From contig CAKTSY010000002.1 of assembly GCA_934613415.1 (NCBI GenBank), forward strand, positions 60,001-92,000: a stretch of 32,000 bases of DNA. The letters are read 5' to 3'. A model generated the notes under the pieces. That model worked only from the letters and a program-made list of their open reading frames with translations. It was not told the DNA's origin and ran no database searches. Source of the stretch: an uncultured Opitutales bacterium (GTDB taxonomy: Bacteria; Verrucomicrobiota; Verrucomicrobiia; Opitutales; Intestinicryptomonadaceae). The position numbers and the translations under genes are program-made. Below are positions 3,545 through 12,721 of the stretch, in pieces (the stretch's first letter is position 1; every line of letters starts with the position of its first letter).

Positions 3545-3617
3545 GCCGAAGTAGCTCAGCTGGTAGAGCAACGCTTTCGTAAAGCGTGGGTCGTCGGTTC
3601 AAATCCGATCTTCGGCT
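3545..3617 (+). tRNA. tRNA-Thr (anticodon CGT)
   Basis: Manual 73-nt cloverleaf. Acceptor GCCGAAG/CTTCGGC; D arm GCTC-AGCTGGTA-GAGC; anticodon stem ACGCT/AGCGT with loop TTCGTAA (CGT at 3578-3580); T arm GTCGG-TTCAAAT-CCGAT; discriminator T. Confidence 0.9.
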
Positions 3618-3696
3618 CTGGTGTTTTTTGCGGCACAGGCATTATGTTTTGTTGCCGTTTTTTGTTTTTAAGGGTCAACACCAAAGAGAGTGGGTT

Positions 3697-4456
3697 TTAG
3701 TGAAAGACGCCGCATAGAACCAAGACCCTCAATCTGTAATTTTCAAAGTTTTTATAACCGTAAGCCATTCGTTGTATTAGTTTCATTTTCCTGTGGGAGC
3801 CTTCTGTTATCCCGTTATTTTTCGTAAATCTCCACATTCGGATTATCGGTGTAAACCGGTCGCTTATCGTCTCTGCTAGCCGCTCAAACTCTTGTGTCGC
3901 TTCGTATTTCATTTGCTTCATCATTCCTTTCAGTTCTCTTATATTCCTTATACATTCCTTTGCCGTTTGATGTTTTCTGTTTAACAGCTCGCACAACCTT
4001 TCCTTAAACTCGTATGCCAGCTTTATCGCGGGATTGTTCTCAAAAAACTTTTCCAATCGCTTAAGCTCTTCGGAGTTCAACCTATCTCCACGTTTTCGCA
4101 ATGGGTATGTCAACTTTCTATTCCATTTTACTTCTTCTTGGGCTTGTTTGCAATTCAAGCGAAGCGCGAATGAGATTTTGCCGTAGGCAAAAGACCCGAA
4201 GGGCGAGACGGTTTGCGCATGCAAACGCGAGTCAAAACTCCATAAAGTGATACAGCACCAATCTTATAACGTGGAACCTGTCCGCCACTATTTTTGCTTT
4301 CGGAAAACACCGCCTTACTATGCTTCGGTAGCTGCTGCTTAAATCCATGCACACTACTTTTACTTTATCCTTTCCTTTATAGCTCATCAAGAATATCACA
4401 CTGGGCATTGTAAGAGTTTTTCCCTCTTCTTTGCCCTCCTTTTTTATCCATTCCAC
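3697..4456 (-). mobile_element. ISL3-family transposase remnant (pseudogene: N-terminally truncated and split into two frames)
   Basis: The ORF at 4232-4456 carries VVCMDLSSSYRSIVRRCFPKAKIVADRFHVIRL (DDE region with DRFH). The ORF at 3697-4224 carries the ISL3 C-terminus TKNNGITEGSHRKMKLIQRMAYGYKNFENYRLRVL. The two parts are in different frames with a stop between them. About the first 190 aa of a full-length enzyme are missing. Confidence 0.8.
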
Positions 4457-4751: not shown

Positions 4752-5741
4752 ATGTTGGAACGGATTGACATAAAGGAGAACTCTCTGTTGAAGCTCAATT
4801 CAGAGCTTCTCGATTCTCTATTGAAAGACCATACAACAAACCGCAACATTATTTGGGGGACTGACAATTATAAGCACTTCGGAATTGGATACCGTTATAA
4901 CGAGCAGATTTTTCCAGAGCTTATCACTGAAGATTGCGGAGAAATAATACGTCCCCGCGTCTCGAAAAGCCAAGAAGAACAACAGGCAAGAGTTAAAGAT
5001 AAAGCCGAGGTATTTACCCCTACTTGGATATGCAACGCCCAAAATAATCTTGTCGACGAAGCGTGGTTCGGCAGAAAAAATGTTTTCAACATAGAAAAAG
5101 ATAAAAATTGGACAGTCAAATCCAAGCCTGTAGCGTTCCCTGAAAACAAGACTTGGCAGGACTATATAGCATTAAATCGATTGGAAGTAAGTTGCGGAGA
5201 AGCTCCATATCTTGTAAGCCGCTACGACGCAATTAGCGGAAAACCTATCCCAATAAAAAGGAGAATCGGGCTTCTCGATAGAAAGCTTAGAGTTGTCGGA
5301 GAGAATACAACAACGGAAAGCGAATGGATAGACTCCGCGTTGACCGCCTTTAAAAGCGTTTACGGCTTTGAATGGCAAGGCGACAATTTGCTTCTGGCTC
5401 GGGAAAACCTACTTTTTACGTACAGCGATTACTACCGGGAAAAATTCAAAAAACTTCCTTCCATAATTGAGCTTTTGAATGTTTCGGAGATTATATCTTG
5501 GAACTTATGGCAAATGGACGGATTAAAATGCGTCGTACCGTATAGTTGCCACGAAGAGACAATCGTCCAAAAGGATTTGATAGAAACAAGAAAATTAAAA
5601 GTCCCCTGCAAGGGCTGCCAAAGGAACGACATTAGGCTTCATAACGGCAAATATTGCTACATAATGGATTGGCAAAAAGGCAAACGCAAAAAATTTGTTT
5701 CGCTGATAAGGAGAGAAAAAAATGCAATCGGGAAAAAATAG
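4752..5741 (+). CDS. Methyltransferase-fold protein lacking a canonical catalytic motif IV, with a C-terminal Cys cluster; candidate partner subunit of the downstream RM-like fusion
   Basis: The ORF track starts at TTG 4743; the first ATG is at 4752. Features: a motif X-like AEVFTPTW (5007-5027), a motif I-like LEVSCGEAPYL (5181-5213), no (D/N/S)PP(Y/F/W) anywhere, and a Cys/His cluster SCH...PCKGCQ...HNGKYC (5529-5657). The 3-prime end overlaps the next ORF by 20 nt. Confidence 0.8.
   Translation: MLERIDIKENSLLKLNSELLDSLLKDHTTNRNIIWGTDNYKHFGIGYRYNEQIFPELITEDCGEIIRPRVSKSQEEQQARVKDKAEVFTPTWICNAQNNLVDEAWFGRKNVFNIEKDKNWTVKSKPVAFPENKTWQDYIALNRLEVSCGEAPYLVSRYDAISGKPIPIKRRIGLLDRKLRVVGENTTTESEWIDSALTAFKSVYGFEWQGDNLLLARENLLFTYSDYYREKFKKLPSIIELLNVSEIISWNLWQMDGLKCVVPYSCHEETIVQKDLIETRKLKVPCKGCQRNDIRLHNGKYCYIMDWQKGKRKKFVSLIRREKNAIGKK
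5708..5715 (+). promoter_or_regulatory. Shine-Dalgarno sequence for the 1358-aa ORF
   Basis: AAGGAGAG lies 6 nt upstream of ATG 5722, inside the end of the upstream ORF. The host gene starts I inspected (1037, 16534, 17886, 27210, 28492, 30534, 3367-, 14076-, 23692-) have no comparable motif. Confidence 0.6.
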
Positions 5742-8700
5742 GTATAAAAATCCGTTCGGGTATAAGCTGATTTATATATTCCGAATCAACGATGATGCCC
5801 ATGAAAACTGCCTAAAAGTCGGCGATACTACCGTTATGTACGAAGGTTCTCCCGCCGAGCTTACTCCAAATTGCAGCAAACTCAACTCTGCCGCCAATGC
5901 CCGCATAAACGAGTGCACAAGAACTGCGGGCATTCATTACGATTTGCTTTATACAGAACTCGCGTACTTTCAAAAATCTGACGGGAAATTTAAGGCATTC
6001 CGAGACTATACCGTACATAAAGTTTTACTAAATTCTGGTATAAAAAAGAAGGAAATCCAAAACGCGCGGGAATGGTTCATTGCGGATTTAGAGACGGTAA
6101 AAAACGCAATAAAAGCCGTAAAAGATGGGCGAAAATCCCTCACTGGCGCGGAAATTTCGACAGATAAAAACCCGATAGTCTTCCGTCCGTCGCAAGTAGA
6201 AGCCATAGAAAAGACTGCAAAATATTTTAAGGGCAAAGCGCATAAACAGTTTTTGTGGAATGCAAAAATGCGTTTCGGGAAAACCCTTGCCGCCTATGAA
6301 GTTGTGCGCCAGTTAGGATATGGAAAAACCCTAATATATACCCATCGCCCTGTTGTTCTTAAAGGTTGGAGAGAGGATTTTTATAAAATCTTTACCGACG
6401 AAAATTCTCCTTGGATTTTCGGGAACAAACCAAATCAGACGATAAATTCTGGTACAGAGCTAAAAGATCTATTGGCGTCTGGCAAAAAATTTGTATATTT
6501 TGCGTCTTTGCAAGATTTGCGCGGTTCAAAATCGGTTGGCGGAAATTTCGATAAAAACGACGAAGTTTTCAAAACAGACTGGGATTTGGTAATTGTCGAC
6601 GAAGCCCACGAAGGCACGCAAACGGGGCTTGGCGAAGAAGTCCTTGCGCAGATATTTACAAAGGAGAATAAAACAAAGCTGCTTCAACTTTCGGGAACGC
6701 CGTTTAATCTGATAACCAAATATACCGCCGACGAAACGTATACTTGGGACTATACAAACGAGCAGGAGGCAAAGGCGATGTGGGACAAACTCTACGGCGG
6801 AGACTCCAATCCATACGCCGATTTGCCCTCAATGCAGATTTACACGTTTGACTTGGCAAAGCAGTTTAATAACTTTGTCGACAGCCAAAAGGCGTTTAAT
6901 TTTAGGGAGTTTTTCAAGGTATGGTCGGGCGATATCATGCGTGACGGTAAACCTGTTCCGCAAGATTCGGCAATCGGCAGATTTGTATATGAAAAAGAAG
7001 TCGAAAAATTCCTGAATTTGATTTCAAGAGCCGACAAAAGCAGCAATTTCCCATTCTCGAAAGAAGAATTTAGGGGATACTTTCGCCATACATTGTGGAT
7101 GCTTCCGGGGGTTGCTTCCGCAAAGGCTATGAGCGAAATGCTGCAAAAGCACCCGATTTTCGGGAAATTTAATATCGCAAACGTTGCGGGCGACGGCGAT
7201 GAAGAAGAGGAAAGCAAGGAAGCTTTAAAGAAAGTTGAAAACGCCATTGGAGATGACCCAGACGATTCATATTCCATAACGCTTTCTTGCGGACGCCTCA
7301 CAACGGGAGTGTCGGTAAAGGAATGGACTGCTGTCATGATGTTGTCGGGGTCTTATTCGACGGCGGCTTCTCAGTATTTGCAGACAATTTTCCGCGTGCA
7401 GACCCCCGCGGAAATCAACGGCAAGACAAAAGAAACCTGCTATGTTTTCGACTTTGCTCCCGACAGAACCCTCAAAATGATGGCAGATGCCGTAAATCTT
7501 TCCACAAAGGCTGGACGTTCCGAGGAAGGCTCAAAAAAAGCCATGGGGAAATTACTCAACTTCTGTCCTATTATAGCAGTGGACGGAACAAATATGCGCG
7601 AATACAACGTTGAAGAAATGTTGGTTCAGTTAAAGAAGGCGTATATAGAAAAAGTTTGCGTCAACGGTTTTGACGATAGCCACCTGTATAACTTTAACCT
7701 GCCAGAACTTTCAGAAATGGACAGGGAAATGCTCGCACATTTGAACAATATAGCAAAGGCGAGCGGCCAAAGCAAAAAGCCTCAAGACCTCATCGTAAAT
7801 AAACAGGGGTTTGACGAAGAAGAACACGAAAAGAAGGAAAGCAACCCCTCTAAGTCTTCTCGCGAAAAAACCGCCGAAGATTTGGAAAAGGAAAAGAAGA
7901 AAAAGGAGAGAGCCAATCTTATTTCCAATCTTCGCGCAATTTCCATACGCATACCATTGCTTGTTTACGGCGCAAATATACCCTTTGAACAGGACATCAC
8001 AGTAGACAATATTACCGGTATTGTTGACGACATTTCTTGGGAAGAATTTATGCCCAAAGGGTTTTCAAAAGAAGACTTCAAATACTTCAAAAAGTTTTAC
8101 GATACAGAGGTGTTCATAGGCGCGGGCAAACGTATTCGCCAAAGAATAAAAGATGCCGAAAGTTTGCCTGTAATGGAGCGCGTGAAAGAAATTGCTGAAA
8201 TATTCGCCATGTTCCGCAATCCGGATAAGGAAACGGTTCTGACTCCGTGGCGTGTCGTAAATATGCATATGAGCGACTGCCTCGGCGGTTATGATTTTTG
8301 GAATGAAAACCATACTGAAACATTGGATACCCCCAGAGTTGTAGACCACGGCAAGATAACCGCGGAAACATTCTGGAATCGTGACGCAAAATTTTTGGAG
8401 ATAAATTCAAAAACGGGGCTTTATCCGCTTTATGTGGCGTATAGCCTATTCTGCGCATTGCGACAGTCGAATAAGCGCAAGACCGACTCCGAGCTATGGG
8501 AAAAAGTGCTAAGAGATAACGTGTATGTGATATGTAAAACGCCAATGGCTGAATATATCACTAAAAGAACTCTTGCAGGATATAAGGATATTAAAGTAAA
8601 CGCAAAATACATAGATAACCTCGTTAACAAAGCTCAAGACGAAAAAACACGAAAGAACTTAGTAAAACTTATACAGAACGGAAAGACCTTTTGGAATATA

Positions 8701-9798
8701 AATCAGGATACAGATATGAAATTTGATGCTATTGTAGGAAATCCACCATACACCGAAATTACGGCTAAAAAAGACACAAATAATGGTCAAAAGCGACAAA
8801 AGAATATATTTCAATATTTTCAGCAAATTGCTGATGCTTTAGGTTCAAATACATCTCTTATATACCCTGGAGCAAGATGGATTCATCGTTCCGGAAAAAA
8901 CATGGAGGATTTTGGAAAAACACAGATAAACGATGGACACTTAGATCTTCTAATTTACTATCCAGATTGGACAGAATTATTTCCTACAGCGCAAATTGGC
9001 GATGGTATTTCCATTGTATTAAAGTTAAGAAATAAAAAGGACTTTGGTTTCACATATGTATATAGACTAAAAAGCGAAGAACACTCTGTGTTTATTAAAG
9101 AAAAACCAGGTAGCAACCTTATTCCATTAAATCCCGTTAACAGCTACATTATAGAAAAGATAAAGCAAACTATGCTTAACTATTCTCTGCCTCCTCTTGC
9201 TGTTTCCGTACTTTCACAAAAACTCTTTGGCATAGAAAGTTCATTTGTTGAACTAAATCCTAAAAAAGTTCGACCATATAACAAAGGCGATAATTTTGAT
9301 ACACAAAATGAAATAAAGCTATTTACAAACAATAAAGCTGGCAAAGCAGGGCGAGCACAGTGGTATATTGCTAAAAGAAATATAATTCACAAGGAAGCGC
9401 AAAAGTATATTGATCGTTGGAAAGTAGTAGTATCAAGTGCTAACGCAGGAGGACAAAAACGTAGTAATCAAATTGCAATAATGGATAATCATACAGCATT
9501 TGGGCGTTCACGTGTAGCTCTCAAAGATTTTGCAACAAAGGAAGAAGCTCGGAACTTCTTCAAATATGCACAAAGTACATTTATTCGTTTTGCTTTTTTG
9601 TTAACAGATGAGTCTCTTACTTCTTTAGCAAAATGGGTTCCTGATTTAAAGAATTATAAAAATAACAATGGGTTGATTGATTTTTTTGCAGATGTAAATA
9701 CAGAAGTGTACAAATTGTTCAATATAAGTGAAAAATATCAAAAGTATATAAATGATTATATTGCTAAAATAGATTTAGCGCGAGGGAAACAAATATAA
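5722..9798 (+). CDS. Single-polypeptide GIY-YIG/T5orf172-like nuclease + SF2 DEAH helicase + gamma-class N6-adenine DNA methyltransferase/TRD fusion (Type ISP-like restriction-modification architecture)
   Basis: N-terminal module: GYKLIYIF...CLKVGDT...ARINE...REWF (about 5758-6096). Helicase motifs: Walker A AKMRFGKT (6262-6285), DEAH (6598-6609), LSGTP (6691-6702), and a helicase C-lobe with GRLTTGVSV...QTIFRVQTP (about 7290-7407). A K/E-rich linker sits at about 7800-7920. MTase motifs: motif X-like VLTPWRVV, motif I-like FLEINSKTGLYPLYV (8392-8436) and FDAIVGNPPY (NPPY at 8740-8751). A roughly 350-aa C-terminal region follows. Confidence 0.85.
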   Translation: MQSGKNRYKNPFGYKLIYIFRINDDAHENCLKVGDTTVMYEGSPAELTPNCSKLNSAANARINECTRTAGIHYDLLYTELAYFQKSDGKFKAFRDYTVHKVLLNSGIKKKEIQNAREWFIADLETVKNAIKAVKDGRKSLTGAEISTDKNPIVFRPSQVEAIEKTAKYFKGKAHKQFLWNAKMRFGKTLAAYEVVRQLGYGKTLIYTHRPVVLKGWREDFYKIFTDENSPWIFGNKPNQTINSGTELKDLLASGKKFVYFASLQDLRGSKSVGGNFDKNDEVFKTDWDLVIVDEAHEGTQTGLGEEVLAQIFTKENKTKLLQLSGTPFNLITKYTADETYTWDYTNEQEAKAMWDKLYGGDSNPYADLPSMQIYTFDLAKQFNNFVDSQKAFNFREFFKVWSGDIMRDGKPVPQDSAIGRFVYEKEVEKFLNLISRADKSSNFPFSKEEFRGYFRHTLWMLPGVASAKAMSEMLQKHPIFGKFNIANVAGDGDEEEESKEALKKVENAIGDDPDDSYSITLSCGRLTTGVSVKEWTAVMMLSGSYSTAASQYLQTIFRVQTPAEINGKTKETCYVFDFAPDRTLKMMADAVNLSTKAGRSEEGSKKAMGKLLNFCPIIAVDGTNMREYNVEEMLVQLKKAYIEKVCVNGFDDSHLYNFNLPELSEMDREMLAHLNNIAKASGQSKKPQDLIVNKQGFDEEEHEKKESNPSKSSREKTAEDLEKEKKKKERANLISNLRAISIRIPLLVYGANIPFEQDITVDNITGIVDDISWEEFMPKGFSKEDFKYFKKFYDTEVFIGAGKRIRQRIKDAESLPVMERVKEIAEIFAMFRNPDKETVLTPWRVVNMHMSDCLGGYDFWNENHTETLDTPRVVDHGKITAETFWNRDAKFLEINSKTGLYPLYVAYSLFCALRQSNKRKTDSELWEKVLRDNVYVICKTPMAEYITKRTLAGYKDIKVNAKYIDNLVNKAQDEKTRKNLVKLIQNGKTFWNINQDTDMKFDAIVGNPPYTEITAKKDTNNGQKRQKNIFQYFQQIADALGSNTSLIYPGARWIHRSGKNMEDFGKTQINDGHLDLLIYYPDWTELFPTAQIGDGISIVLKLRNKKDFGFTYVYRLKSEEHSVFIKEKPGSNLIPLNPVNSYIIEKIKQTMLNYSLPPLAVSVLSQKLFGIESSFVELNPKKVRPYNKGDNFDTQNEIKLFTNNKAGKAGRAQWYIAKRNIIHKEAQKYIDRWKVVVSSANAGGQKRSNQIAIMDNHTAFGRSRVALKDFATKEEARNFFKYAQSTFIRFAFLLTDESLTSLAKWVPDLKNYKNNNGLIDFFADVNTEVYKLFNISEKYQKYINDYIAKIDLARGKQI

Positions 9799-9850: not shown

Positions 9851-10354
9851 ATGGAGGAAGTTAAAAACTACTTTTATAATTATCTTTTAAGGCCGATTTC
9901 TGAACTTGTTTTGAATCAAAGAATATACAAAGACTTTCAGAAAAATTGTATTTTAAAGGGTTATAAAGAGGATTACTTTACAGACTTTGTCGATATAAAC
10001 TACTACAAGGCAACAATTACAGACCTATGCAGACTTCTAGACTATCCCAGACGAGAAGATGATAGGAATTTTGTAGGATTTATAAAGTTATTTAAAGAAG
10101 AAGAAGCCAATATTATAAAAAGTAGAAGTAATATACCTGTATTTTGCTTAAGCTCAAAGAGCACAAAATATGTAGATATATCTGATAAAATAGAGCCAGA
10201 TTTTAACAAAGTAGAACACGATAGAAAAATAAAAGAATTAGAGGAAAAATTTAAGATTTTTCAAGAGTATCGGAACAAAGTAAATTGTCACCAAACTTCT
10301 ACAGAAAAAAACCGCCAACTATGGAAGATATTGATGCGACTATTTCGCTTTTAG
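9851..10354 (+). CDS. Small hypothetical protein with a HEPN-like R-x5-H motif; apparently truncated by a frameshift at an A7 tract
   Basis: 167-aa ORF in the lowest-G+C part of the window. It contains YRNKVNCH near the C-terminus. The coding-looking sequence continues in another frame to TAA at 10459-10461 (see findings). Confidence 0.6.
   Translation: MEEVKNYFYNYLLRPISELVLNQRIYKDFQKNCILKGYKEDYFTDFVDINYYKATITDLCRLLDYPRREDDRNFVGFIKLFKEEEANIIKSRSNIPVFCLSSKSTKYVDISDKIEPDFNKVEHDRKIKELEEKFKIFQEYRNKVNCHQTSTEKNRQLWKILMRLFRF
10305..10311 (+). repeat. A7 homopolymer at the frame break of the HEPN-like ORF
   Basis: acagAAAAAAAccgcc, read directly from the sequence. One extra A would fuse 9851-10354 to the open frame that ends at 10461. 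Confidence 0.9.
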
Positions 10355-10496
10355 AAGATTTACTGTTAATATATGCGAAACTATTCGGTATATGTTTATG
10401 CTCCATAATTCCAAAACCTATTTACCGAAATCCACCATTACTGGATATACCCGTAGATTAAAATCTAATGGCATTGGACTATCCATATTATAGAGT

Positions 10497-10524
10497 ATAA
10501 AAAAGCCCTCATTATCGAGGGCTT
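10497..10524 (-). terminator. Rho-independent terminator for the minus-strand ORF ending at 10529
   Basis: Stem aagccctc (10503-10510) pairs with gagggctt (10517-10524). The A-run on the plus strand at 10497-10504 gives a U-run after the hairpin on the minus-strand transcript. Confidence 0.65.
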
Positions 10525-10528
10525 AGAA

Positions 10529-11032
10529 TCAGAAGAACATTCTTAGTAAAATCGCGACCAGAATGCCTATCTGCCAGACGGCTATGCGTTTGAAGGTGTC
10601 GTTATCGGCACTCAGTCGAAAGACGTTTTTCTGGATTTCGTCTTCGGCAGTCGAAGTGTCGGGCAGCTCCGAATCGAAACGCAGGACAATCTGCGAAAGC
10701 TCCAAGCCCGACGGGAAGCCCTCCGCGTAAAGATACGTCGTGCTCGAAAACGACGAAACCGCGATGTGCTTCGTATAACTTCCGTTTCCCTCGAACGGTA
10801 GCGACCACCCGTAAAACGCCAAATCCCTGCTCGACGCGCCGTAGTTTTTCCAAAATCCCGAATTCCCCGCGCCGTAGAAAAATCCCTCGAAGCCCTGCAA
10901 ACACGAACAGGTAATAGAATGCAGATAAACCGCGTCGGTCGATTCCTCTTCGAGCTTGAAATATGCGCTTGTTCCCTTGTACAAATAGAGCTTGAATGCG
11001 CCCGACCATTTGAGTGTGAGCGTCATTTCCAC
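10529..11032 (-). CDS. Hypothetical protein with a C-terminal TM anchor; may be the distal part of a broken larger gene
   Basis: 167-aa ORF (GTG at 11032, ATG at 11026) ending in the hydrophobic tail RIAVWQIGILVAILLRMFF, followed by a terminator. It is in the same frame as the upstream ORF, separated from it by a single TGA. Confidence 0.45.
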   Translation of the reverse strand: MEMTLTLKWSGAFKLYLYKGTSAYFKLEEESTDAVYLHSITCSCLQGFEGFFYGAGNSGFWKNYGASSRDLAFYGWSLPFEGNGSYTKHIAVSSFSSTTYLYAEGFPSGLELSQIVLRFDSELPDTSTAEDEIQKNVFRLSADNDTFKRIAVWQIGILVAILLRMFF

Positions 11033-11038
11033 GGTCTG

Positions 11039-11993
11039 TCATTCGTCTTTTGGCAGAATCACGCCCGACTTGTCGATGTTCTCGGTCTTTGAAACTATCG
11101 TCCCCGCACTTGCGGACGCAATGCTGCCAAGCCTTAGCTGGACTTTCGTGACGTTCGGGTTCGTCGTCGGCAGGTAAATCGAGAACCTGATTTTGTGCAG
11201 CATTCCGTTGCCGCTTAAGTACTTTGAGGGAAGTTCGTATTCGTGCGAAGTGTTGTAGGTATCGGGCACGAGCGAAATTTTCAGGACATTCTTTTTGCCG
11301 CCGATTTCCGTGCCGCCTACGCCTTTCGAGTGCGGGCTGTTTAAAAGAAAAAGTATGGGACATTTGAAAAATACCTCTCATAAGGAGAAAACGCCTTGCC
11401 AAGCAAAGACGCCTGAGTGCGGAGTTTGCCGTTCATAAGGTGCGTGTTGAATGCGTCGAAACCCCAGAAGTATTCAAAGGCCTCTTGGTCGATGTCGATC
11501 CAGACGGTTTCGCCACGCTTTCTGATGTCGTAGGTGTCGTTTAGCAATTTCTCCCATTTCGCAATCGCCGACTCGTCGAGCGGTATAATCTCCTTGGAGT
11601 TTGGGACGGTTTTGGGCGCGCCTTTGCAGTAGAGGAATCTTCCAAGAAAGACGCTGCCGATAAAGCTGCCTTTGTTTTTTGAAACGATATTGTCGATTAT
11701 GTCGTTTCAAAAAACAAAGGCAGGGAAATGCAGGGATTGGGCACGTTAAATACGCCGTTTACAATTCGGTTGTGCTTTATAGGCTCGCCGCACCAGCCGC
11801 TGTTTAGCGTTTCGGTGTCGTCGCCCTGCTTGCGGTAGTTGCCCGCCACAATGTAGATGCTGTCCCGCGCCTCCTCGCATACGGAGAAAATTTCTCCGCC
11901 GCTTTCCTCCATCGCCTTTATCATGGCTTCCGATGTCGCGTTTTTTACGATGAAATCCGGATTTTTTGAAAACTTTGGGGCTATTTGGATTTT
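11039..11993 (-). pseudogene. String of broken minus-strand ORF fragments (unknown family)
   Basis: Three open segments: 11039-11378, 11341-11706 and 11697-11993. They are separated by a frame change near 11341-11378 and by a stop within the inverted repeat at 11666-11723. Most lack an ATG start. Confidence 0.35.
11666..11723. repeat. Perfect 22-bp inverted repeat with a 14-nt spacer
   Basis: ctgcctttgttttttgaaacga (11666-11687) is the exact reverse complement of tcgtttcaaaaaacaaaggcag (11702-11723). Confidence 0.95.
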
Positions 11994-12079
11994 TTATAGC
12001 TAAATAAATCAGATTCCTTGCTCAAGTCTATTAGCGGAAGTTTTTCGCAACAACCGGTCGTTATTGTCGGCAGCGCCTG

Positions 12080-12618
12080 TTATGGTGACATGCCCTTAAC
12101 ATTGGAAAGGTCTTGAGCATTCAGGCCCTTTCTGAAGAAGGCATCATCTTTACTGGTTGCTGTGGTTCCAAGTTGTCTCAATGCTTTCCACGAAGCACTG
12201 TTTCTACCGTCAACATAGGTGTTGCCACAGCCAAGCCCATACCAGAGAACTATCCCTAAGGTATACTTTTTTTAATTGGGAACCTCAATAACAGGATCGG
12301 GTAATTTCCCCGTGAATTTTGAGGAGTCCAGCGGGGAGTTCCTATCAATATAACTCTCTAAATTAAAATGTTTGGTCGCGGATAATGACGAAACATCGAT
12401 TGAATATTTCCAATTTAAGGTTTTCGACTCGGAGTCATACGAGAACATATCAGGACGGTTAACCTTGCAATAATCTAGACCAGTATAAATAAAATATACT
12501 TCCCAGCGGTTTTATCATGTGCAACAGAGATGCCTCTAGCGTTTGTTGAACCAAGCAGAGAAAGATAAATACCAAGAATCTCCTCTATCGGCTCGGTTGC
12601 CGTTTTGGTAGCGGGCAT
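12080..12618 (-). pseudogene. Decayed ORF of unknown family (one frame change and one in-frame TAA)
   Basis: On the minus strand, MPATKTATEPIEEILGIYLSLLG... runs to a stop at 12475-12477 and continues in another frame as YTGLDYCKVNRPDMFSYDSESKTLNWKYS...PVIEVPN. After an in-frame TAA (12272-12274) it reads KKYTLGIVLWYGLGCGNTYVDGRNSASWKALRQLG... to a stop at 12080-12082. Confidence 0.3.
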
Positions 12619-12686
12619 AATAACGGTTTTTGCGGCTTTGGTTTTTGCAAAGCTATATTGATTTTTGTCGCCGATATTTTTCAAAA

Positions 12687-12721
12687 AACCGCGCTTGAAT
12701 TTAAGTAAGTGCGGTTTTTTT
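12687..12721. terminator. Hairpin terminator downstream of the VOC gene (bidirectional appearance)
   Basis: aaccgcgctt (12687-12696) pairs with aagtgcggtt (12707-12716) with one mismatch. It is flanked by an A-run on the left and a T-run on the right, and starts 10 nt past the stop of 12726-13040(-). Confidence 0.6.

Follow-up and report, generated by a model that had tools for sequence, protein, structure and literature searches.

The window analysed here, a 32,000-nucleotide (nt) stretch of contig CAKTSY010000002.1 from an uncultured Opitutales bacterium, carries two overlapping genes. We read the pair, with a probability of about 0.68, as an ATP-dependent restriction(-modification) system that is spread by horizontal transfer. 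A protein of 1358 amino acids (aa) is encoded by the large gene. From the N-terminus, this protein consists of a T5orf172/GIY-YIG-like head, a superfamily 2 (SF2; ResIII/SNF2-like) ATPase, a K/E-rich linker, a helical domain, a gamma-type N6-adenine methylase fold with an NPPY motif, and a C-terminal recognition module. The small gene directly upstream encodes a 329-aa partner. The reading draws on what the domains are, on how well the residues of motor and nuclease are conserved, on the obligate pairing of the two genes, on the swapping of the recognition module and on the location of the pair in a genomic island.

4752–5741, + strand: small partner gene, 329 aa, ATG at 4752, 20-nt overlap with the large gene (PADLOC, gene neighbourhood)
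5722–9798, + strand: large open reading frame (ORF), 1358 aa, with nuclease head, motor, methylase fold and recognition module (translation, Pfam)
5758–6123, + strand: T5orf172 (GIY-YIG superfamily) head, aa 13–134 (Pfam, AlphaFold model, BFVD matches, invariant residues)
6172–7692, + strand: SF2 helicase-like ATPase, aa 151–657 (Pfam ResIII, E 1.2e-15; motifs)
7801–7920, + strand: K/E-rich low-complexity linker, aa 694–733 (translation; variable charged segment in the family alignment)
7915–8217, + strand: all-helical domain joining the linker to the methylase fold, aa 732–832, in a coupler-like position (AlphaFold model)
8218–8751, + strand: N-lobe of the gamma-type methylase fold (invariant columns, model strands, Eco57I Pfam match from aa 933)
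aa 833–849, + strand: NPDKETVLTPWRVVNMH, motif X-like, in the N-lobe (invariant columns)
aa 892–904, + strand: LEINSKTGLYPLY, at the place of motif I, in the N-lobe (invariant columns)
aa 937–943, + strand: ICKTPMA, at the place of motif II, in the N-lobe (invariant columns)
8740–8751, + strand: NPPY, aa 1007–1010 (invariant columns)
8752–9795, + strand: swappable C-terminal module, aa 1011–1358, comprising the remainder of the catalytic lobe and the target-recognition domain (identity comparisons, fold)

Head, motor and linker of the large protein

The large ORF begins with ATG, and a strong ribosome-binding site (AAGGAGA) lies about 8 nt 5' of this codon. The protein has more than 8000 homologues (90% clusters), and a query consisting of the head and the helicase retrieves 612 clusters at 50% identity (E ≤ 1e-30). 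Numbers this high indicate a genuine gene rather than a chance reading frame. An earlier note on this DNA had described the ORF at 5722–9798 as a Type ISP-like single-chain enzyme with a GIY-YIG-type nuclease head. Translation recovers the ORF exactly so, together with the strings picked out in its head (GYKLIYIF, aa 13–20; CLKVGDT, aa 30–36; ARINE, aa 60–64; REWF, aa 116–119) and the K/E-rich linker expected at about 7800–7920, which occupies nt 7801–7920. Pfam places T5orf172 at aa 17–133, ResIII at aa 153–328 and Eco57I at aa 933–1082. No PD-(D/E)xK family, Mrr included, matched the large protein in Pfam, NCBIfam or PADLOC, in agreement with the note, which had seen no such signature in the head; in the profile comparison of the N-terminus, T5orf172 was matched and Mrr was not.

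The assignment of the head to the GIY-YIG superfamily (T5orf172/MUG113 type) is likewise borne out by Pfam matches of family heads, fold matches and conserved residues. The isolated head scores 20.1 bits against T5orf172 (PF10544; cut-off 20, E 9e-4), which is borderline, and the score is only 13.7 bits in the context of the full-length protein. Among 28 diverse heads of the family, T5orf172 was found in 24 at E ≤ 0.01 (best E 1.1e-7), and the sister family MUG113 was matched by 11. An AlphaFold (AF2) model of the head, computed with the family alignment as input, has a predicted local distance difference test (pLDDT) score of 88.5 and a predicted template-modelling (pTM) score of 0.82. Its elements follow the order strand, strand, helix, strand, helix, strand, helix. 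The top matches in BFVD, a set of predicted viral structures, are nearly all T5orf172, BRO, ALI-motif and 'GIY-YIG nuclease family' proteins, with probabilities of 0.97–1.0, modest E-values (1.5e-3 to 0.08) and template-modelling scores of 0.4–0.49.

In family alignments reaching across phyla, the head residues Y18, K32, G34, R61, E117 and W118 are invariant and H99 is conserved in at least 90% of members. A Lactococcus lactis plasmid homologue retains the same residues. Consistent with the model, Y18 lies in strand 1, K32-x-G34 in strand 2 and R61 in helix 1. On the basis of conservation, Y18, K32/G34, R61, H99 and E117 constitute a candidate catalytic set. The T5orf172 domain of ICP1 Odn (Gp88) is a proven nuclease that needs the same Arg and Glu (PMC8263062).

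Firmicutes plasmid members (Lactococcus lactis pCV56A, L006:3518-4050; P0293; P0288) carry about 150 extra N-terminal residues ahead of the T5orf172 head, which in the Lactococcus protein match DUF4145 (E 9e-5). A search for homologues of the head alone, tried as a source of other architectures, yielded only truncated fragments of the same family and was uninformative.

About one in ten full-length relatives begins directly at the motor, near residue 20, without the T5orf172 domain. Upstream of these headless proteins lies a partner that is 47% identical in the one locus compared (L088) and a gene of similar size in other loci. An HNH-type gene of about 250 aa was found downstream in five of the five headless families examined (L088:5351-6133, L090:7742-8494, L091:6080-6811, L093:7256-8029 and L094:4784-5548; Pfam). 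The HNH matches are mostly weak, the strongest reaching 1.3e-5 and 25.7 bits against a cut-off of 21.4. That a separate HNH gene replaces the fused head speaks for the head as the nuclease of the system. We favor this function because of the conserved residues, the ICP1 Odn precedent and the HNH substitution taken together.

After the HNH-type gene come a ~830-aa gene that matches YjiT_N faintly and then a DEAD/Helicase_C gene of 1700–2000 aa with weak YjiV_N matches. To judge from gene content, this shows the two-gene form as a compact member of a wider group. The headless operon, with its HNH-type, ~830-aa and DEAD/Helicase_C genes, looks like a separate multi-gene defence system with the same core.

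The motor contains a Walker A GKT (aa 186–188, nt 6277–6285), a DEAH box (aa 293–296, nt 6598–6609), SGTPF and QTIFRVQ. SF2 motifs I, II, III and VI are intact, and each of the 145 full-length members examined carries GKT, DEAHEG, SGTPF and QTIFRVQ. Motors of relatives also match the SWI2_SNF2 and SNF2-related models of Pfam, which would fit translocation along double-stranded DNA better than helicase unwinding. The motor profile had no close solved relative in the PDB, where RadD (0.018) and SNF2h (0.21) came nearest and neither LlaBIII nor LlaGI was matched; single-sequence and profile searches of the PDB with the whole protein, head, motor and partner gave nothing useful. The linker that follows reads QGFDEEEHEKKESNPSKSSREKTAEDLEKEKKKKERANLI, and 23 of its 40 residues are charged (K, E, D or R). 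In the model of the adjoining helical domain, helices span model positions 2–98 at a pLDDT of 84–92. No Pfam family matched this domain (aa 732–832).

Methylase-like half, recognition module and partner gene

The Eco57I family (PF07669) matches aa 933–1082 with an E-value of 2e-23 (83.8 bits, cut-off 25.3), a feature common to all listed homologues. In the model of aa 732–1358 (pLDDT 79.8), the helical domain is followed by a complete Rossmann-type sheet, whose strand 4 precedes NPPY, and by a mixed domain at the C-terminus. Its fold matches in the PDB include the following.

CamA, adenine methylase of C. difficile: E 3e-15, nearly end to end
BrxX/PglX, BREX methylase: E 1e-12 to 1e-10
BpuSI, Type IIG enzyme: E 2e-10
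M.TaqI, adenine methylase: E 7.5e-9
LlaBIII, Type ISP enzyme: E 1e-8, rank 41

Since CamA, BrxX, BpuSI and TaqI all precede LlaBIII, this half represents a gamma-type adenine-methylase fold with a recognition domain, not specifically one of the Type ISP kind.

The motifs on the S-adenosylmethionine (AdoMet) side, LEINSK[TS]GLYPLY at the place of motif I and [IV]CKTPMA at the place of motif II, are invariant but non-canonical (143–145 of 145 members). In the large protein, Lys939 replaces the ribose-binding Asp/Glu of motif II and motif I is atypical. Given these features, the large protein may not methylate. Glu893 at the acid position of motif I and the NPPY motif are intact. Of the gamma N6-adenine methyltransferase described in the note, the fold and NPPY are thus present, while methylase activity is not to be assumed with such AdoMet motifs.

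The motif X-like stretch NPDKETVLTPWRVVNMH and the next ~30 residues (aa 833–879, window 8218–8358) form the most conserved part of the methylase half, yet they are the sole long low-confidence region of the model (pLDDT 34–46). The model suggests that this segment is ordered only with the partner or DNA.

The sequence downstream of NPPY varies independently of the rest of the protein. The closest relatives share 86–92% identity up to NPPY and 25–29% beyond it, and distant relatives share 52–57% before and 53–65% after. Across 49 genome loci, the mean identity is 61% for the core and 35% for the post-NPPY module, and the divergences of the two are almost uncorrelated (Spearman 0.13). The fold of the module resembles the methylase and recognition domain of the CamA/TaqI type. 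In the sequences compared, the pattern is that of recognition-domain shuffling as in restriction-modification systems, with recombination at NPPY. Such shuffling argues that the large protein reads DNA sequence.

A homologue of the small partner is encoded directly upstream of the large gene in 75 of 75 assessable loci (80 loci were taken from species genomes, 75 of them with enough upstream sequence). The paired genomes span Bacteroidota, Bacillota, Verrucomicrobiota, Spirochaetota, Planctomycetota, Cloacimonadota and others. The constant presence of this overlapping gene contradicts the idea of a single-chain enzyme that suffices alone. The partner matches the PADLOC model MTase_II PDLC03390 ('Type II methyltransferase') over its full length (E 3.9e-123). 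The ORF list begins it at TTG 4743 (332 aa); the product on record in public assemblies begins at ATG 4752 and has exactly 329 aa.

On Lactococcus and Enterococcus plasmids, the partner position is occupied by a 230-aa 'N-6 DNA methylase'. In L. lactis pCV56A, this protein contains the motifs GEVFTP, LEPAAGDGNFL, YGIE and GNTL and ends before NPPY. It matches only positions 20–105 of 311 in N6_Mtase and 21–97 of 259 in MmeI_Mtase; the latter score is 21.8 bits against a cut-off of 27, and no other protein here touches that model. The 329-aa partner is homologous to the pCV56A protein (BLASTP E 6e-11). Where motifs I, II and III-like would lie, it retains acidic residues, of which E145 and D256 are invariant and E207 is conserved in at least 90% of members. 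It has neither NPPY nor a hypervariable region. In the 49 loci, its divergence tracks that of the core of the large protein (Spearman 0.74), not that of the recognition module (0.10), and two systems with different recognition modules have partners that share 90% identity. By sequence, the partner is a distant relative of the N-terminal half of N6_Mtase/MmeI-type methylases, the half that binds AdoMet. Given the Firmicutes motifs, the conserved acids, the lack of a variable region and the divergence that follows the core, the partner looks like an AdoMet-binding methylase half that acts together with the large protein or on it, and not like a sequence-specific methylase in its own right.

Two other readings of the partner were considered and rejected. 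A recent duplication of the methylase N-lobe of the large protein would predict a similarity that hhalign does not see (probability 0.3%). A hidden PD-(D/E)xK site (YD159...D176-R-K178) lacks its first element in the aligned Firmicutes homologue, and the second element, D176-R-K178, coincides with the methylase helix after motif I.

It is possible, although we consider it the less probable case by some distance, that the large protein has a catalytically dead methylase-like domain, which does no more than read sequence and adenine, with the small partner as the real AdoMet binder. The partner could then complete the NPPY pocket in trans or act as an AdoMet sensor gating restriction, and the system would be a two-subunit enzyme of new design rather than a single-chain restriction-modification enzyme. 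The invariant but non-canonical motifs of the large protein would be expected in such an enzyme, as would the conserved acids of the partner and the canonical motifs of its Firmicutes counterpart, which stops short of NPPY. The strict pairing, the absence of a variable region, the co-divergence with the core and the disorder of the invariant motif X-like stretch in the monomer model point in the same direction. However, the large protein has its own complete Rossmann-type sheet and matches active methylases as a whole, its Glu893 and NPPY are retained, no similarity links the partner to the N-lobe, and the connection of the partner to methylases consists of one pairwise match and a weak Pfam match.

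A more far-reaching proposal, which we put forward still more tentatively, is a new class of ATP-dependent restriction in which the methylase function is divided. The large chain, with the NPPY pocket, recognition, motor and GIY-YIG nuclease, would have lost the normal AdoMet site, and the half-methylase partner would bind AdoMet. The partner may be part of a split methylase or an AdoMet-gated switch between modification and restriction. The nuclease may be a plug-in element, for which the two-gene form uses a fused T5orf172 domain and the longer operon, with its YjiT- and YjiV-like genes, a separate HNH gene.

For the restriction(-modification) system that we prefer, we infer nuclease activity, translocation, methylation, the AdoMet-binding subunit and the geometry of cleavage as follows. 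The C-terminal methylase fold and the exchangeable recognition module would read a short DNA target, probably with an adenine flipped into the pocket formed by NPPY. If the DNA is unmodified, the SF2 motor would hydrolyse ATP and move along the double strand, and the T5orf172/GIY-YIG head would then cut at a distance from the site. The 329-aa partner would work in a complex with the conserved core of the large protein, most likely supplying or sensing AdoMet for a protective N6-methyladenine mark.

Several points weigh against this scheme. Every activity in it is predicted. In Pfam, the head of this protein scores no higher than the threshold region, and Foldseek did not find a solved GIY-YIG nuclease as a match for it. 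The Lys939 substitution and the atypical motif I of the large protein belong here as well, and neither Pfam and NCBIfam nor the PDB gave a match to the partner family. According to a preprint on a phage satellite, there are T5orf172 proteins that have been domesticated as DNA binders and are not nucleases. The related three-gene dnmA-yeeB-yeeC system of B. subtilis gave no restriction or phage protection (PMC9973331).

If the head were a DNA-binding or regulatory module, interference could proceed without cutting, by motor-driven displacement or by a replication block as proposed for BREX, or the system could be mainly an epigenetic methylase. Many records still label T5orf172 a 'DNA-binding domain', the domesticated protein of the phage satellite is a non-cutting example, the fold of the methylase half resembles BrxX/PglX, and the B. 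subtilis genes behave as an orphan methylase (PMC9973331). We nevertheless regard a non-cutting head as unlikely. The Tyr, Arg, His and Glu that GIY-YIG nucleases need are kept across phyla (Y18, R61 and E117 without exception), an HNH gene stands in for the head in headless relatives, and Vibrio homologues of the split system protect against phage, as reported in a work cited in PMC9973331.

Genomic setting and distribution

3545–4456: left island edge, consisting of tRNA-Thr(CGT) at 3545–3618 (+ strand) followed by ISL3 transposase remnants at 3697–4456 (− strand) (Rfam tRNA, G+C drop)
9851–10354, + strand: accessory ORF, 167 aa, HEPN/AbiU2-like, with an RNKVNCH (Rx5H) motif (Pfam HEPN_AbiU2, E 0.024)

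The gene pair lies within a low-G+C stretch of 8–10 kb (0.31–0.42, against ~0.45–0.49 around it). The genes around the island are of housekeeping sugar metabolism and are at least 90% identical to those of an Opitutales metagenome-assembled genome. Relatives of the system adjoin relaxase, MobC and integrase genes in Bacteroidales and elsewhere reside on small plasmids of lactic acid bacteria. We read the system as mobile because of the tRNA-Thr gene, the insertion sequence remnants and the low G+C content, and because relatives are found by relaxase and integrase genes or on plasmids. A phage collection contained only distant partial matches, so the system is not typically phage-borne. No flanking direct repeats of the tRNA-Thr end, as expected of an attachment site, were found around the island. 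The Rfam scan of the window returned tRNA only, and the counts from promoter and terminator scans were not above those in shuffled sequence. The ISL3-family transposase is represented by two ORF fragments of one gene on the minus strand, at 3697–4224 and 4232–4456.

Downstream of the large gene, the 167-aa HEPN/AbiU2-like ORF shares 63% identity with a 203-aa protein encoded downstream of a close relative (L004:9957-10568), but diverges and ends early. To judge from this alignment, it is probably a truncated abortive-infection-type gene riding the same island. Its role as a component of the system was rejected, since it is absent from other loci, and it is treated as a neighbour. The following ~2.3 kb (10400–12700), between the island and an aldose epimerase gene, contain only short or compositionally odd ORFs with no Pfam or Rfam match, and may represent decayed genes or the right end of the island. 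A perfect-looking 25-nt hairpin is located in this stretch, at 11666–11723.

The family is present in at least 593 species genomes and is abundant in gut Bacteroidales, Akkermansia, Treponema and Clostridia, as well as on small plasmids of dairy lactic acid bacteria. Together with the 612 clusters of the head and helicase query, this means that the architecture, taken as unusual in the earlier note, is not rare. The public annotation of the large protein is just 'Eco57I restriction-modification methylase domain-containing protein'. The family constitutes a frequent putative barrier to phage and DNA transfer in gut and dairy bacteria.

Comparison with known systems

The closest likeness in layout is to the Type ISP enzymes (LlaGI, LlaBIII; PDB 4XQK), in which one chain contains a nuclease, an SF2 ATPase, a helical connector, a gamma N6-adenine methylase fold and a C-terminal recognition domain. 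Type ISP enzymes are also carried on mobile elements, lactococcal plasmids included. By analogy, the expected mode of action would be ATP-driven movement from an asymmetric site and cutting at a distance. Major differences can be noted. The nuclease is Mrr PD-(D/E)xK in Type ISP and T5orf172/GIY-YIG here, and the large protein has no detectable sequence relationship to LlaGI or LlaBIII. Its methylase half is structurally nearer to CamA, BrxX and BpuSI, its AdoMet motifs are non-canonical, and it is accompanied by an obligate small partner gene.

Pfam includes models specific to the Type ISP coupler/specificity domain. None of them is among the matches at E ≤ 10. Of the features that define Type ISP, the SF2 motor is present, and the Mrr nuclease, relatedness in sequence or structure, sufficiency of one gene and a Type ISP-specific family match are missing. 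A true Type ISP enzyme, that is, an orthologue of LlaGI/LlaBIII with its Mrr domain replaced, would account for the identical domain order and for the appearance of LlaBIII among the fold matches of the C-terminal half. We consider it highly improbable, as neither LlaBIII nor LlaGI was matched in the PDB by sequence or profile with the whole protein or the motor, four other methylases come before LlaBIII at rank 41, a second gene is obligate and Pfam gave no match to a Type ISP coupler or recognition family. The Type ISP-like character seen in the earlier note thus holds for the order of nuclease, SF2 motor, gamma-methylase fold and recognition module, but not for kinship.

The combination of an adenine methylase carrying a recognition domain, an SF2 helicase and a T5orf172/GIY-YIG nuclease is also found in dnmA(yeeA)-yeeB-yeeC, the nearest concept in the literature, which we liken to the present system by description only. 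There, the three activities reside in three separate genes and the methylase is of the MmeI type with normal motifs. Here, the nuclease, motor and Eco57I-type methylase fold are fused, and the extra gene encodes a half-methylase-like protein; instead of three adjacent genes, the locus contains a fusion and one small gene. It was proposed in 2009 that an MmeI-type methylase, a helicase and a GIY-YIG protein form a Type I-like system with single-strand modification (Morgan et al., PMC2731913), and the LlaBIII paper speaks of relatives 'which utilize different endonuclease families (e.g. GIY-YIG)' (PMC3553950). Restriction systems in which GIY-YIG is linked to a helicase had thus been foreseen in 2009 and 2013. 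Common and anticipated, the system is less surprising than first thought. In the literature searched, which did not extend to REBASE, no paper characterising the fused family was found.

The head resembles the T5orf172 nucleases, such as ICP1 Odn/Gp88 and phage homing-endonuclease-like genes, in Pfam family, predicted fold and the conserved Arg and Glu (PMC8263062, PMC10448857). Nucleases of this type are small and stand alone or are fused to DNA-binding domains; the large protein differs from all of them in its attached motor and methylase fold. The other end of the chain resembles the Eco57I-family, CamA-type, Type IIG/IIL (BpuSI, MmeI, DrdV) and BrxX/PglX methylases, with an Eco57I domain, NPPY and an exchangeable recognition module. 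The C-terminal 627 aa superpose as a whole on CamA/IIG/BREX-type proteins (E 3e-15 to 1e-8). These methylases differ in that they lack an in-chain SF2 motor, have either a PD-ExK nuclease or no nuclease, and carry canonical AdoMet motifs. Type III (Mod/Res) and Type I (HsdRMS) systems are likewise multi-subunit and couple an SF2 motor that depends on ATP to an adenine methylase bearing a recognition domain. Their nuclease is of the PD-(D/E)xK type, and motor and nuclease are in a subunit apart from the methylase, whereas motor, nuclease and recognition share one chain here.

To our knowledge, the ATP-dependent restriction enzymes characterised to date (Type I, ISP and III) all cut with PD-(D/E)xK nucleases. 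If an enzyme of this kind works with GIY-YIG, it would reveal the way in which a motor is linked to a nuclease with one active site per domain, and would test whether the collision model of double-strand breaks holds. The swappable recognition module provides a natural set of enzymes of differing specificities, and the half-methylase-like partner could reveal a new link between AdoMet and restriction. As a biochemical target, the system is worthwhile for its partner, its non-canonical AdoMet motifs and its exchangeable nuclease. In relation to known systems, it is a widespread variant of the ATP-dependent single-chain restriction-modification theme that lies outside the Type ISP family, with T5orf172/GIY-YIG in place of Mrr and, unexpectedly, an obligate half-methylase-like partner.

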